A stretch of 4,577 bases of DNA from the IMG/VR virus record IMGVR_UViG_2734482555_000008; one strand, written 5' to 3'. The translations under genes and the position numbers were made by a program. Source of the DNA: a virus (lineage: Duplodnaviria > Heunggongvirae > Uroviricota > Caudoviricetes). Below the pieces are notes generated by a model. That model was given only the letters and a program-made list of their open reading frames with translations, was not told the DNA's origin and did no database searches. Below are positions 1 through 4,552 of the stretch, one piece after another. Every line of letters begins with the position of its first letter. The stretch's first letter is position 1.

Positions 1-161
1 GCTTTGAACTCTTTAGAGTAACGTTGGGTTTTTCTGCTCATTATTAGCTCCTTCTGATGCCATTCTATTTCAGGAAGGAGTGTCCGTTAAACTCAGGCTA
101 CCTCAGGTTATTCGCTTCTGGGCATGGGCGGATCAACAAATGATAGACGGTAATGCAGATT

Positions 162-180
162 GTAACGCTCGCGGCGTTAC
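162..180. repeat. Inverted repeat GTAACGC-N5-GCGTTAC
   Basis: GTAACGC at 162..168 and GCGTTAC at 174..180, read directly. Lies inside the N-terminal coding part of the O-like gene. Confidence 0.6.
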
Positions 181-370
181 AAAAAGTGCAATAGATCGCA
201 TCACTTTTATGTCTGGTTTTGCTGATGCGTTAATTCAGGTTGGATGGCTGGTCGAAAATGACGGAGGGCTTTCTCTACCTAACTTTGAACGTCATAACGG
301 AAAAAGCTCTAAAAAAAACGGGCGGTTACAAACGAGCGAGTAACAAAAATACGCGAACTGAAACGAAAAG

Positions 371-389
371 GTAACGCTGCCAGCGTTAC
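371..389. repeat. Near-perfect palindrome GTAACGCTG-C-CAGCGTTAC
   Basis: 9 bp arms at 371..379 and 381..389, read directly. The same heptamer core recurs at 406..412 (GCGTTAC) and 18..23 (GTAACG), with degenerate copies at 323..329 and 338..344. Confidence 0.6.
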
Positions 390-414
390 ACAAACGGATC
401 AAAAAGCGTTACCA

Positions 415-432
415 GAGGAAGAGGAAGAGGAA
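415..432 (+). repeat. Tandem hexamer (GAGGAA)x3 encoding an acidic tract
   Basis: Three perfect GAGGAA copies at 415..432. Encodes the EEEEEE run in the linker of the O-like gene. Confidence 0.8.
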
Positions 433-788
433 GATCTAAATACTGATCTCCCCCTCGCCAAAAACGAGCGTCTAAAAAATTCGAGCCGGAGGCTATTGAG
501 CTGCCCGATTGGTTGCCGGAAACACTCTGGCATGAGTGGGTCCGGTTCAGACAGGCATTGCGAAAACCGATTCGAACGGAGCAGGGCGCTAACGGGGCGA
601 TACGGGAACTGGAAAAATTCCGTCAGCAGGGTTTTACACCTGAGCAGGTGATTCGACACAGCATCGCCAATGAATACCAGGGCCTGTTCGCGCCGAAAGG
701 TGTTCGGCCTGAGACGTTGCTCCGACAGGTTAACACCGTCTCGTTGCCGGACAGTGCGATCCCGCCAGGCTTCAGGGGGTAACGGACC

Positions 789-1957: not shown

Positions 1958-2014
1958 ATGAAATTAGCTATCAGGCTTCAATTACCGCTGGCATTCGCAT
2001 CAAAGGAGAGGAGC

Positions 2015-2371
2015 ATGGAAATAAAACCAGAAGATGAGTTAAGCAATATCGTTTTATTTCCGGTAAAAGAGGATGACCCTCGTAATCAGGTTAATTTTCT
2101 TTATGAGCCATCGGAAAGACCATATTGCCATCACGCCTCTGTACGGGTTGACGAAAAAGAGCGTCAGGTCCGCTGTAAAATCTGCGGTGCGGTTGTGGAG
2201 CCGTTTGACTGGATGCTCTCTGTGGCAAAAAGAGAAACCAGACTGGCAGATGATGTAAGGCTATTGCGCCAGGAGGAACAGGAAAGGCGGAGAAATATAG
2301 AAAAGCTGATACAGATTGAGCGTAACGCGAAAGCGCGGATACGCAGGGCGACAAAATCCAGAACTGAATAA
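2015..2371 (+). CDS. Hypothetical zinc-ribbon protein with basic coiled-coil C-terminus
   Basis: ATG at 2015 preceded by strong SD AAAGGAGAGGAG (2002..2013). An alternative start is ATG 1958 (TGA-ATG junction with the previous gene, AGGAGG 1941..1946 at 11 nt spacing). Contains C-H-H ... C-x-x-C (PYCHHASVRVDEKERQVRCKIC), followed by a highly charged helical tail. Stop TAA 2369..2371. Confidence 0.65.
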   Translation: MEIKPEDELSNIVLFPVKEDDPRNQVNFLYEPSERPYCHHASVRVDEKERQVRCKICGAVVEPFDWMLSVAKRETRLADDVRLLRQEEQERRRNIEKLIQIERNAKARIRRATKSRTE

Positions 2372-2518
2372 TTAAATTTAGCACTGTTAAAAATTTAATC
2401 CTTAACCGGAGGGATTTCTGCACCCTCAAATCATCAGGAGACCACCCGAAAGGGCGGGGAGCAGTCACACATCTGTTTCCGATAGCCCCGTTCTAATGCT
2501 ACACTCTTTGATATTTTT

Positions 2519-3205
2519 ATGACCCCAATAAACATATTTATGACAGTTGCTGATTTCAAACGGCCCAAATTGGAGCTCCCAAACGGGGCAAACAAACTAC
2601 TACTGCACTCTTGCTGTGCTCCATGTTCCGGTGAGGTGATGGAGGCGCTTCAGGCCTCGGGAATCGACTACACCATCTTTTTCTACAACCCGAACATTCA
2701 TCCTCAGAAAGAGTATTTAATTCGTAAGGATGAGAATATTCGCTTTGCTGAACAACACGGCGTGCCGTTTATTGATGCTGATTACGACACAGACAACTGG
2801 TTTGAACGAGCCAAAGGAATGGAATGGGAGCCCGAACGAGGGATCCGTTGCACCATGTGTTTTGACATGCGTTTTGAGCGGACAGCGCTGTACGCCGCTG
2901 AAAATGGTTTCAGTGTGATCAGCAGTTCACTGGGCATTTCACGCTGGAAAAATATGCAGCAGGTTAACGACTGTGGGCGGCGAGCCGTCGCGCATTATCC
3001 GGGCATGGTGTACTGGGATTATAACTGGCGCAAGCAGGGCGGCTCGTCCCGTATGATTGAAATCAGCAAGCGCGAAAAATTCTATCAGCAGGAATATTGT
3101 GGCTGTGTGTATTCTCTGCGCGATACCAATCTACACCGCAAATCTCAGGGACGCCCTCTTATCAAAATTGGTCAACTCCACTACGGTAAAGAAGAGAAGG
3201 AGTGA
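2519..3205 (+). CDS. queH: QueH-like protein (DUF208 family, epoxyqueuosine reductase-like Fe-S enzyme)
   Basis: The 228 aa ORF carries the family-typical HSCCAPCS motif (codons from 2606) plus further conserved-looking Cys motifs CTMC and CGC. There is no recognisable Shine-Dalgarno before ATG 2519 or the in-frame ATG 2540, so the start is uncertain and may be leaderless or downstream. A weak promoter-like TTCCGA-N17-TACACT lies at 2477..2505. Stop TGA 3203..3205. Confidence 0.8.
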
Positions 3206-3226
3206 TTTTATGGGGCACCTTTCTGA

Positions 3227-3256
3227 TTGATTTCATATTGGCGAGGTAAGTAGAAT
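3227..3256 (+). promoter_or_regulatory. Putative sigma70 promoter (TTGATT-N18-TAGAAT) firing into the masked block
   Basis: -35 TTGATT at 3227..3232, 18 nt spacer, -10 TAGAAT at 3251..3256. Same hexamers as the promoter at 3764..3791. Hexamer match only, no experimental support. Confidence 0.35.
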
Positions 3257-3700
3257 GACTGCGGGTGCTTGAGGCTATCTGCTTCAGGCATGAACACCAA
3301 AAGGCAGATAGAGAAAAGCCCCAGTTAACATTACGCGTCCGGCAAGACGCTTNNNNNNNNNNNNNNNNNNNNNNNNNNNNNNNNNNNNNNNNNNNNNNNN
3401 NNNNNNNNNNNNNNNNNNNNNNNNNNNNNNNNNNNNNNNNNNNNNNNNNNNNNNNNNNNNNNNNNNNNNNNNNNNNNNNNNNNNNNNNNNNNNNNNNNNN
3501 NNNNNNNNNNNNNNNNNNNNNNNNNNNNNNNNNNNNNNNNNNNNNNNNNNNNNNNNNNNNNNNNNNNNNNNNNNNNNNNNNNNNNNNNNNNNNNNNNNNN
3601 NNNNNNNNNNNNNNNNNNNNNNNNNNNNNNNNNNNNNNNNNNNNNNNNNNNNNNNNNNNNNNNNNNNNNNNNNNNNCATCCTCAACGCACCCGCACTTAA

Positions 3701-3750
3701 CCCGCCCATCGCTGTGATCTCTCAGCGTTTCGGCGGGTTTTTTGTTGTTT
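3701..3750 (+). terminator. Rho-independent terminator
   Basis: Stem CCCGCC (3701..3706) pairs with GGCGGG (3732..3737). Inner stem CGCTG (3710..3714) pairs with CAGCG (3723..3727) around an 8 nt loop. T6 follows at 3738..3743, then a T-rich tail. An in-frame TAA at 3698..3700 sits immediately upstream. Confidence 0.55.
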
Positions 3751-3763
3751 ATTTCCGGTGAAT

Positions 3764-3791
3764 TTGATTCGCGCACCTTCGCAGATAGAAT
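3764..3791 (+). promoter_or_regulatory. Putative sigma70 promoter for the downstream small-gene pair
   Basis: -35 TTGATT at 3764..3769, 16 nt spacer, -10 TAGAAT at 3786..3791. Lies directly after the terminator and about 80 nt upstream of ATG 3873. Confidence 0.4.
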
Positions 3792-3872
3792 CGACTCACT
3801 TAAGTAGCGCGCAGGGAGAAGAGGGATGGACCCCGAACAGGGGAGAGCTATTTATCTGGAAGGATTCTGAAG

Positions 3873-4160
3873 ATGAAAATCGAAGAATTGCGTGAAATTT
3901 TTAGTGAAAATGGCCTCTATGCTGTGCGCGTTGAGAATGGAGCGATTGTCAGCCATTGCCGCATTAGATGTTTGCAATCTCAACAAAGGAAGAGCGGTGC
4001 TGTGTTATTTTATTTTTGTAATGGACTTCTGACGGACGGTTTTATTTTGCGTGAGGACGAATTTGTCACATCATTACGGGTTTTGAAAGAGATTGGTTTT
4101 AAGGCTGGTTTTCTGCTTTTGCTGAAGAATAAACTCATCTACAATCTTGAGCAGGATTGA
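3873..4160 (+). CDS. Hypothetical small prophage protein (95 aa)
   Basis: ATG at 3873 with SD GGAAGGA (3858..3864) at 8 nt spacing. Protein-like composition. Stop TGA 4158..4160. Confidence 0.65.
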   Translation: MKIEELREIFSENGLYAVRVENGAIVSHCRIRCLQSQQRKSGAVLFYFCNGLLTDGFILREDEFVTSLRVLKEIGFKAGFLLLLKNKLIYNLEQD

Positions 4161-4198
4161 ACTCCTGCTGTGTAACACCGTGCCACCGGAGAAAGCCG

Positions 4199-4552
4199 AT
4201 GGCACATATACAACTGGTCAAACAAACCTCTTCCGGATTACTTCTCCCGGCGACGCCGGAGAGTTGCGATTTTCTGCATCAAATCAAAATAGGTGAGTGG
4301 ATACACGCAGACTTTAAGCGTGTGTGTAACTACGCATTCCACAAGCGTTTTTTCAAACTCCTGCAACTGGGTTTCGATTACTGGACTCCGGTCGGTGGGG
4401 CGATCACGCCTCGCGAACGAAAACTGGTGTCCGGTTTCGTTGATTACCTGTGTGAATCAGTAGGCCGGGAACATACGCCAGCTCTGAGCGAAGCCGCAGA
4501 GCAATTGAGGTGTACTGGCAATAGCGGACACTACCATTTGTTCTTTTTTTAA
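4199..4552 (+). CDS. Hypothetical prophage protein (117 aa from ATG 4199)
   Basis: ATG at 4199 with GGAG (4188..4191) at 7 nt spacing. The ORF track's TTG 4157 start would overlap the upstream gene and lacks an SD. Stop TAA 4550..4552. Confidence 0.65.
   Translation: MAHIQLVKQTSSGLLLPATPESCDFLHQIKIGEWIHADFKRVCNYAFHKRFFKLLQLGFDYWTPVGGAITPRERKLVSGFVDYLCESVGREHTPALSEAAEQLRCTGNSGHYHLFFF

Follow-up and report, generated by a model that had tools for sequence, protein, structure and literature searches.

A queH gene predicted to encode a cobalamin-independent epoxyqueuosine reductase on lambdoid prophages and plasmids of Enterobacteriaceae

Introduction

Queuosine tunes the decoding of Asn, Asp, His and Tyr codons. 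The final step of its formation, the conversion of epoxyqueuosine (oQ) to queuosine (Q) on tRNA, can be carried out by QueG or by QueH. The metal centre of QueH consists of a [4Fe–4S] cluster and an adjacent iron and contains no cobalamin, whereas QueG (YjeS) has an unrelated fold and uses cobalamin together with two [4Fe–4S] clusters. E. coli has no de novo cobalamin synthesis and must import vitamin B12. QueH proteins function as epoxyqueuosine reductases (PMC5372724, PMC5615194), QueG catalyses the same step, and E. coli makes oQ-tRNA (PMC5372724). According to the account of Frey 1988 given in PMC4646009, the reduction of oQ to Q is cobalamin-dependent in both E. coli and Salmonella. Staphylococcus aureus possesses both QueG and QueH, which are differentially expressed, and the authors of that study invoke cofactor availability (PMC13443448); the two enzymes also occur together in 755 Streptococcus strains (PMC12632869).

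The structurally described QueH is that of Thermotoga maritima (TmQueH; PDB 7LC5, 7LC7 and 9DEU; PF02677, COG1636), which converts oQ34-tRNA to Q34-tRNA without cobalamin. A survey published in 2019 found no QueA, QueG or QueH homologs in the viruses analysed (PMC6884629), and our literature search found no paper in which queH is described from E. coli prophages or from plasmids of enterobacteria. Morons of lambdoid phages, such as bor and lom of lambda and hok/sok of Stx phages, are single accessory genes that have a predicted promoter and lie between modules beside other cargo.

Here, we describe a queH gene in a stretch of 4,577 nucleotides of Caudoviricetes DNA (IMG/VR record IMGVR_UViG_2734482555_000008), referred to as the window. 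The enzyme family, the reaction, the structure and the RefSeq name are all known, and it is the mobile context that is under-described; the locus is not a new system.

Family assignment, ligand residues and predicted fold

A first-pass annotation of this DNA, made by reading the sequence without database searches, had assigned the ORF to the QueH family on the basis of its cysteine motifs. The assignment holds: the protein matches the Pfam QueH profile PF02677 with 220.6 bits (gathering score, 23.5; E = 1.9e-65) over profile positions 1–174 of 175. In a sequence search of the PDB, TmQueH (7lc5) is the top match with E = 5e-22 and an identity of about 31%, and the T. maritima QueH entries are the only solved relatives. 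An AF2 model of the 221-aa protein is only moderately confident (mean pLDDT 74, pTM 0.74), and its top five matches in the PDB are all TmQueH, with TM scores of 0.78–0.81 normalised by target length (0.80 for 7lc7 and 7lc5) and an rmsd of 2.9 Å for four of the five entries. PP-loop/TtuA-type proteins follow next in the fold search, their E-values being weaker by a factor of about 1e5. By profile, ligand residues and predicted fold, therefore, the ORF is a full-length QueH, sharing with TmQueH the entire domain, and the reaction of TmQueH is likely to be that of the prophage protein as well.

Alignment to 7lc5 places Cys25 and Cys26 of the prophage QueH at Cys9 and Cys10 of TmQueH and Cys29 at Asp13, and all six TmQueH cysteines (C9, C10, C87, C90, C169 and C171) are matched by cysteines (Table 1). 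The metal-ligand residues expected from the motifs are thus intact, with Cys29 at the Asp13 position, as in every other QueH compared. The PDB includes C9S and D13N mutants of TmQueH, and the deposition of the D13N mutant suggests that the Asp13 position is important. Which QueH residue binds which metal was reportedly worked out by Li and co-workers in 2021, and the titles of the PDB entries are consistent with the metal centre given above. Judged by the aligned copies, Cys29 does not represent the loss of a ligand: cysteine is normal at this position in all other copies, and the Asp of Thermotoga is the exception. The sequence H[ST]CCAPCS is present in 97 of 97 matching loci, and HxCCAPCS is also found in diverse copies from an S. 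aureus contig, from an Acinetobacter-labelled contig and from several gut contigs of Firmicute-like origin. The prophage QueH differs from TmQueH in a conserved N-terminal extension of 19 residues, in a basic C-terminal tail of about 28 residues, and in being borne by a prophage rather than placed in a chromosomal Q-pathway context.

RefSeq already labels the protein epoxyqueuosine reductase QueH. An NCBIfam scan of the protein matched no model, so the RefSeq name is not explained thereby. The PHROGs match is phrog_3217, annotated as "unknown function"; its profile begins at Met41 of the ORF and so does not include the CCAPC motif. This start reflects old mis-called start codons, and the match is functionally uninformative.

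Table 1. Features of the window. Positions are those of the 4,577-nt stretch; residue numbers refer to the 221-aa protein.
Feature	Position	Strand	Remarks
O-like replication initiator	80–782		split over three frames
DnaC/YdaV-like ATPase	from 789		partly masked
DUF977 protein	1535–1957
Small zinc-ribbon ORF	1958–2371
Conserved queH leader	2469–2539	+	left edge of sequence common to different prophage types at 2469
Candidate −35 hexamer TTCCGA	2477–2482	+	weak; 3 of 6 matches; 17 nt upstream of the −10; prediction
Predicted extended −10, TG-c-TACACT	2497–2505	+	from comparative conservation
queH ORF as first called	2519–3205	+	228 aa from the first ATG
queH CDS, predicted epoxyqueuosine reductase (QueH/DUF208)	2540–3205	+	221 aa and stop; Pfam, PDB, fold, RefSeq WP_012421537.1
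H-S-C-C-A-P-C-S motif	2606–2629	+	His23, Cys25, Cys26, Cys29
C-T-M-C motif (in RCTMC)	2849–2860	+	Cys104 (2849–2851) and Cys107 (2858–2860), equivalent to TmQueH Cys87 and Cys90
C-G-C motif (in YCGCV)	3098–3106	+	Cys187 (3098–3100) and Cys189 (3104–3106), equivalent to TmQueH Cys169 and Cys171
sok RNA	equivalent of 3263–3438		Rfam RF01794, 117 bits; unmasked FDAARGOS_944 locus
N-masked stretch	3353–3676
hokD	equivalent of 3433–3588		from near-identical genome
Small ORF	3873–4160
DUF1367 protein	4157–4552

Start codon of queH

The start of the protein is almost certainly the ATG at 2540 and not the first ATG of the ORF at 2519, as judged from a comparison of copies. In the Salmonella, Klebsiella and Enterobacter copies, the triplet equivalent to 2519 is not a start codon but reads ATT, ATA or otherwise, and in E. 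coli A10, translation from the first ATG would run into an in-frame stop before reaching the second. ATG 2540, in turn, is universal among the compared copies, and the RefSeq CDS WP_012421537.1 likewise begins at its equivalent. Since ATG 2519 is unconserved and ATG 2540 is universal, the protein would have 221 residues. No Shine–Dalgarno sequence precedes the gene on inspection of the window and of the E. coli-type copies, which agrees with what had been noticed from the window at first reading.

Prophage neighbourhood

According to ORF calls, Pfam and PHROGs, the window comes from a lambdoid prophage and corresponds to its early-right region. Its closest match among public sequences is E. 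coli FDAARGOS_944, with 99.9% identity over 2372–3352 and 100% over the queH ORF. The element has inserted there next to ybhA, close to the gal–mod region, as a prophage longer than 32 kb; the stretch analysed comprises 32 kb, from the integrase to the baseplate genes, and ends inside the prophage.

The gene had been described as standing alone between two gaps. A gap of 147 nt does precede its first ATG, but the 667 nt downstream of the gene (3206–3872), which had been taken as a gap of about 670 nt, are occupied: the equivalent region of FDAARGOS_944 contains a hok/sok module, most of which is masked in the window. An Rfam scan of the window itself gave no match because the hok/sok region is masked by N, and the module was therefore read from the equivalent unmasked locus.

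The GC content of queH is 48.6%, compared with 54.8–57.4% in the two replication ORFs, 51.1% in the DUF977 gene, 45.7% in the upstream ORF and 39.6% in the downstream ORF. The early impression that queH is more AT-rich than the replication genes is thus correct, but the gene is not a compositional outlier within the window, the mean of which is 48.7%.

Boundaries of the cassette and a putative promoter

In a blastn comparison of 178 loci, homology begins exactly at 2469 in 69 of them and extends farther upstream in 12 loci of the same prophage type. Most E. coli matches begin at query position 98, which corresponds to 2469 of the window. The right edge of the shared sequence lies at about 3209–3212, a few bases past the stop codon, in loci without hok/sok. 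These boundaries suggest a mobile unit of about 740 bp, spanning approximately 2469–3210 and containing one ORF and a predicted promoter.

The promoter-like element, which lies within the 71-nt leader, was recognised in an alignment of 11 sequences, namely copies from prophages, a phage, Salmonella IncF plasmids, Klebsiella IncF/IncR plasmids and Enterobacter chromosomes, in which the core of the element (A-T-G, then A) is invariant, the remainder is mostly near-invariant, and the flanks diverge. Of the 88 E. coli-type copies, 87 have the sequence TGCTACACT at position −43 relative to the ATG, and all four copies at 85–93% identity have either TGCTACACT or TGCTACAAT at the same position. Around the candidate −35 hexamer, the block TTCCCGATAGC is kept among E. 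coli, Salmonella and Klebsiella copies. The element TGcTACACT resembles an extended −10 promoter of the sigma-70 type, which would be active from a predicted start near 2512 and would give an AU-rich 5′ untranslated region of about 28 nt that has no Shine–Dalgarno sequence.

A simple promoter and terminator scan left the −10 and −35 elements unflagged, owing to the weakness of the −35, and returned chance-level sites only. The same scan found no terminator-like site in 2300–3352. With neither a Shine–Dalgarno sequence nor a terminator of its own, queH could be expressed at a low level, or its transcript could read into hok.

Distribution in E. coli, phages and plasmids

At 90–100% identity, queH is present in 995 of 5,426 complete E. 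coli genomes, nearly always as a single chromosomal copy, and is thus accessory, whereas queG is core, being found in all 5,426, including every queH carrier. The statement that enterobacterial hosts normally use QueG is accordingly true for E. coli. A phage-borne QueH had also been called unexpected, which is too strong for a gene that occurs in so many E. coli genomes, is named in RefSeq and is chromosomal in other Enterobacterales.

The gene always occupies a slot just after the replication module (YdaU/YdaV, DUF1627, DUF977), followed by variable cargo and then by nin/Q-like genes. The same slot is used in E. coli 042 (Rac position, by trkG), in O157:H7 (Z1768), in an ST131 strain, in A10 and in one record deposited as a plasmid; the prophages concerned are of the Rac, Qin and lambda-att types, and the neighbours of queH vary among them. 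The cargo beside queH is hok/sok, an NgoMIV-type restriction–modification system or a DUF1971 gene. That queH might belong to the common core of this phage family and have a different assigned function is contradicted by its frequency: it was found in about 1,017 places as against about 5,014 for the adjacent DUF977 gene, and since the latter is about five times more common, queH is accessory within the prophage class.

These data support the placement of queH as a moron, as the first-pass annotation had proposed, in that the gene is accessory, lies between conserved modules, is present or absent among related prophages and has a sharp boundary at 2469. Two other hallmarks of morons are missing, namely a terminator of its own in the interval scanned and a deviant base composition. 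The queH cassette differs from the lambdoid morons in both respects and also in its product, which is a tRNA-modification enzyme of the housekeeping type and not a surface, virulence or exclusion factor.

In IMG/VR, queH is carried by at least 189 viral contigs, the best 80 of which match at 99–100% protein identity. In the GenBank phage collection, 25 records contain a homolog, and Escherichia phage HannyBb, in which the gene is annotated as "hypothetical protein", is the only credible isolated phage among them. The other 24 records are mostly short unverified faecal contigs. Two large records were rejected as evidence of carriage by phages, as both look mislabelled: in "Acinetobacter phage MD-2021a" (328 kb), the neighbours of the homolog are bacterial chromosomal genes, and the bacterial-looking "Staphylococcus phage SA 1306 Kay" (282 kb) bears the flag UNVERIFIED_ORG.

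Homologs are also found in 295 plasmid records, of which 99 are from Klebsiella and 62 from Escherichia. In three IncF/IncR plasmids of Klebsiella and Salmonella that were inspected, queH stands alone among unrelated cargo, with no phage genes in the flanks shown.

Purifying selection on prophage copies

All 88 E. coli-type copies have intact ORFs with an ATG start. They represent 20 alleles with a median pairwise dN/dS of 0.023, and dS reaches 0.31 between prophage alleles; the dN/dS values are confined to E. coli-type alleles, as dS between genera is saturated (about 3). Among these 20 alleles, 45 codon columns vary only synonymously whereas 9 change the amino acid, and His23 and all seven cysteines are invariant. 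Comparison of the alleles indicates that QueH is under strong purifying selection and is kept functional while resident in prophages.

A neutral passenger acquired by recombination and heading for decay might have been expected from the constant redundancy with queG and from the state of the host elements, since some of the prophages look defective and the O-like gene of the window itself is frameshifted. However, the intactness of all 88 copies, the low dN/dS at appreciable dS and the invariance of the ligands argue against a decaying passenger, and the promoter element is kept across very different replicons. This explanation is therefore very improbable.

Chromosomal relatives and origin

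Hundreds of Enterobacterales species encode proteins 78–86% identical to the prophage QueH. The gene has ordinary chromosomal neighbours in Providencia, Photorhabdus and Lysobacter. Clustering of the neighbours at 80 species loci shows lineage-specific synteny in Erwinia/Pantoea, in Serratia, in Rahnella/Ewingella and in Pectobacterium/Dickeya/Lonsdalea, and the surroundings of queH are also syntenic in Sodalis/Acerihabitans and in Proteus. QueH is therefore not foreign to Enterobacterales: in Erwiniaceae, Serratia/Rahnella, Pectobacteriaceae and Proteus/Providencia, its gene is a stable part of the chromosome. In contrast, the queH loci of Escherichia, Shigella, Enterobacter, Kluyvera and Scandinavium have no common neighbours, and among these, genes of the prophage described here are found only at the E. 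albertii and Shigella loci.

The chromosomal proteins of Erwinia, Pantoea, Serratia, Rahnella, Pectobacterium, Proteus, Providencia and Photorhabdus have the same length and motifs as the prophage protein. They differ in context, being encoded in conserved neighbourhoods, whereas the Enterobacteriaceae copies have no conserved neighbours and are carried on prophages and plasmids. Moreover, most copies at a nucleotide identity of at least 85% share their own extended −10 element. Chromosomal Enterobacterales QueH is the likely source of the mobile copy. These comparisons are read most simply as the capture of queH, a vertically inherited housekeeping gene in several Enterobacterales families, by mobile elements circulating in Enterobacteriaceae.

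Proposed role in the lysogen

Taken with the invariant ligands, the conserved promoter-like element and the mobile distribution, the protein is probably a functional, cobalamin-independent QueH, carried on a mobile cassette of promoter and ORF, that lets lysogens finish queuosine without B12. The cassette would be transcribed from its own predicted extended −10 element, with a start near 2512, and read-through from the early-right operon would add to queH transcription during lytic growth. The short AU-rich leader, which has no Shine–Dalgarno sequence, would be followed by translation from ATG 2540, and the host would supply the Fe–S cluster to the 221-aa protein. QueH would then reduce the epoxide of oQ34 to give queuosine on the host tRNA-Asp, tRNA-Asn, tRNA-His and tRNA-Tyr, so that a lysogen could complete queuosine with or without a supply of B12. 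Such independence would follow from the need of QueG for cobalamin and the inability of E. coli to make cobalamin de novo. The proposed pairing of QueH with QueG in a lysogen has a parallel in the back-up pair MetE/MetH.

Since queG is present in every carrier genome, QueH is never strictly needed. In the literature searched, no phenotype is reported that would distinguish E. coli with oQ-tRNA from E. coli with Q-tRNA, and any selective benefit of the cassette is therefore hypothetical. A further-reaching idea, which we put forward tentatively and consider doubtful as it stands, is that the queH cassette on lambdoid prophages, at least one viable phage and IncF/IncR plasmids acts as an epitranscriptome conversion factor: by uncoupling the oQ-to-Q step from cobalamin, it would alter the decoding of NAU and NAC codons in B12-poor niches and, with it, Q-dependent traits such as biofilm formation, stress responses and phage resistance. 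If so, a phage would for the first time be seen to provide a Q-specific step of tRNA modification.

Should the proposed function of the cassette hold, a prophage would enable about one in five E. coli genomes to finish queuosine without B12, numerous plasmids of Klebsiella and Salmonella would confer the same ability on their hosts, and strain differences in tRNA modification would arise that are invisible to studies of K-12. It would also revise the notion that the deazaguanine-pathway genes of phages are limited to the preQ0/DNA-modification half. If QueH merely duplicates QueG without a phenotype, it would be a routine accessory metabolic gene. The frequency of the cassette on mobile elements, the conserved predicted promoter, the strong constraint and the constant co-occurrence with a B12-dependent isoenzyme make it of interest, and the presence or absence of the 740-bp cassette, combined with the presence or absence of B12, offers a simple genetic handle on the functional difference between oQ and Q.

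Gene content and codon usage of the prophage

Defence-type cargo, namely the NgoMIV-type restriction–modification system and hok/sok, occurs in the same slot of related prophages, and 7-deazaguanine chemistry occurs in phage DNA (PMC6884629). These observations would fit a protein that has moved off tRNA to 7-deazaguanine DNA modification or to another epoxide or nucleoside, with a function in anti-restriction or counter-defence, and a phage nucleic-acid modification or counter-defence role had been raised for the gene at the outset. However, the annotation of the 32 kb of the FDAARGOS_944 prophage lists no gene for DpdA/TGT-like proteins, QueC/D/E, preQ0 synthesis or any other deazaguanine function, and neither DpdA/TGT-like nor preQ0-synthesis genes are annotated in the 13 kb around queH of HannyBb. 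The nucleic-acid-modification proposal therefore finds no supporting pathway genes between integrase and baseplate, and nothing tested points to counter-defence. In addition, the survey cited above (PMC6884629) describes no epoxyqueuosine-type DNA modification. The protein is 78–86% identical to housekeeping QueH, and all ligands and the bulk of the core are unchanged, which leaves little room for a new substrate. We give a role away from tRNA hardly any credence.

Alternatively, QueH could serve the phage itself: produced from the early-right transcript, it would shift oQ to Q so as to aid phage translation or reshape the host response during lytic growth. The position of queH between the replication and Q-antiterminator genes of the early-right operon would lead to early transcription, and according to a preprint on Shewanella glacialimarina, queG is expressed more strongly upon phage infection and oQ is shifted to Q, so that the step is dynamic in infected cells (bioRxiv 10.64898/2026.03.05.709803). 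The prophage also bears tRNA genes, but these are specific for Ile, Arg, Thr and Gly, and none is a Q-tRNA. The same cassette, including its predicted promoter, is present on the IncF/IncR plasmids described above, away from phage genes in the flanks shown. A phage-serving role is thus unlikely, and codon usage points in the same direction: the ratio NAU/(NAU + NAC) is 0.540 in the early and 0.541 in the late prophage genes, compared with 0.533 in a K-12 region, indicating no bias in the codons concerned.

Terminal additions of QueH and start codon assignments

Comparison with QueH of Thermotoga maritima, whose structure has been solved, has shown that the enterobacterial QueH proteins have a 19-residue N-terminal extension (window 2540-2596), in which R8, L13 and P14 are invariant. 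At the C-terminus they end in a basic tail some 28 residues long (window 3119-3202), where R194, D195, N197, R200 and R205 are invariant. These N- and C-terminal additions could be involved in the binding of tRNA or of a partner. PHROG 3217, which consists of 188 positions and is annotated as 'unknown function', starts at the internal Met41 of the 228-aa ORF, thus covering window 2639-3205, and the CDS annotated as 'putative prophage protein' in CAKLQH020000001 also starts at the equivalent of Met41. Since both start at this internal methionine, they lack the CCAPC motif. The Met41 starts are historic mis-calls and hide the assignment to the QueH family.

The latter record (L102; CAKLQH020000001.1) is labelled 'Acinetobacter phage MD-2021a', is 328 kb long and has soxR, cynX and tadA as neighbours. 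The record labelled 'Staphylococcus phage SA 1306 Kay' (L099; OR844989.1) is 282 kb long and is flagged UNVERIFIED_ORG. Both GenBank records look like bacterial chromosomal contigs, not phages. In the locus from the record titled Pseudomonas lundensis strain I31 (L067), queH has the same neighbourhood, with gene clusters 40-41-17-29 / 25-30-26, as in loci of Serratia species, suggesting that this assembly is mislabelled or contaminated.

Genes on either side of queH

The ORF between DUF977 and queH (see the table) shows a weak match to a TFIIB-type zinc ribbon, under the Pfam cutoff. This ORF is confined to the prophage type of the window; in the other prophage types DUF977 is followed directly by the queH cassette.

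Features next to queH, with coordinates in the window and in L001, a near-identical E. coli FDAARGOS_944 prophage
Feature	Window	L001	Position	Remark
137-aa ORF	1958-2371		between DUF977 and queH	PHROG 1621 match (unknown function)
hok/sok type I toxin-antitoxin module	3263-3588	20892-21217	directly 3' of queH	read from L001

In L001 the module comprises hokD and a sok RNA, the latter matched by Rfam RF01794 at 117 bits. An Rfam scan of the window gave no match; there the hok/sok copy lies mostly under an N mask (3353-3676, the hokD region). The other of the two N runs, 1218-1518, covers part of the YdaV/DnaC-like gene, and ORFs called across either run are artefacts. In a related prophage, that of E. 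coli O157:H7 Z1768 (L015), a DNA cytosine methyltransferase and an NgoMIV-family restriction endonuclease (6872-8882) lie directly after queH, where hok/sok would be. The slot after queH is a hot spot where accessory and defence genes are carried as cargo. The queH-carrying prophage L001 also has a tRNA cluster (Ile, Arg, Thr and Gly; 23423-23733) 3' of the Q-like gene, and none of these four is a queuosine-bearing tRNA.

Replication initiator and left end of the window

The O-like replication initiator (window 80-782) is divided into three reading frames, the outer two being 80-343 and 513-782, with a middle part between them. In L001 the corresponding gene, 98.8% identical, forms one continuous CDS of 789 nt, and the alignment of the two contains 12 gap positions, apparently at A-runs. 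Either the prophage is defective and the gene a pseudogene, or the split results from an assembly error. Window 1-104 has no alignment beside the O gene in L001, and in the Shigella flexneri locus L020 its match lies about 5.5 kb away, an arrangement that points to a mosaic joint at the window's left end.
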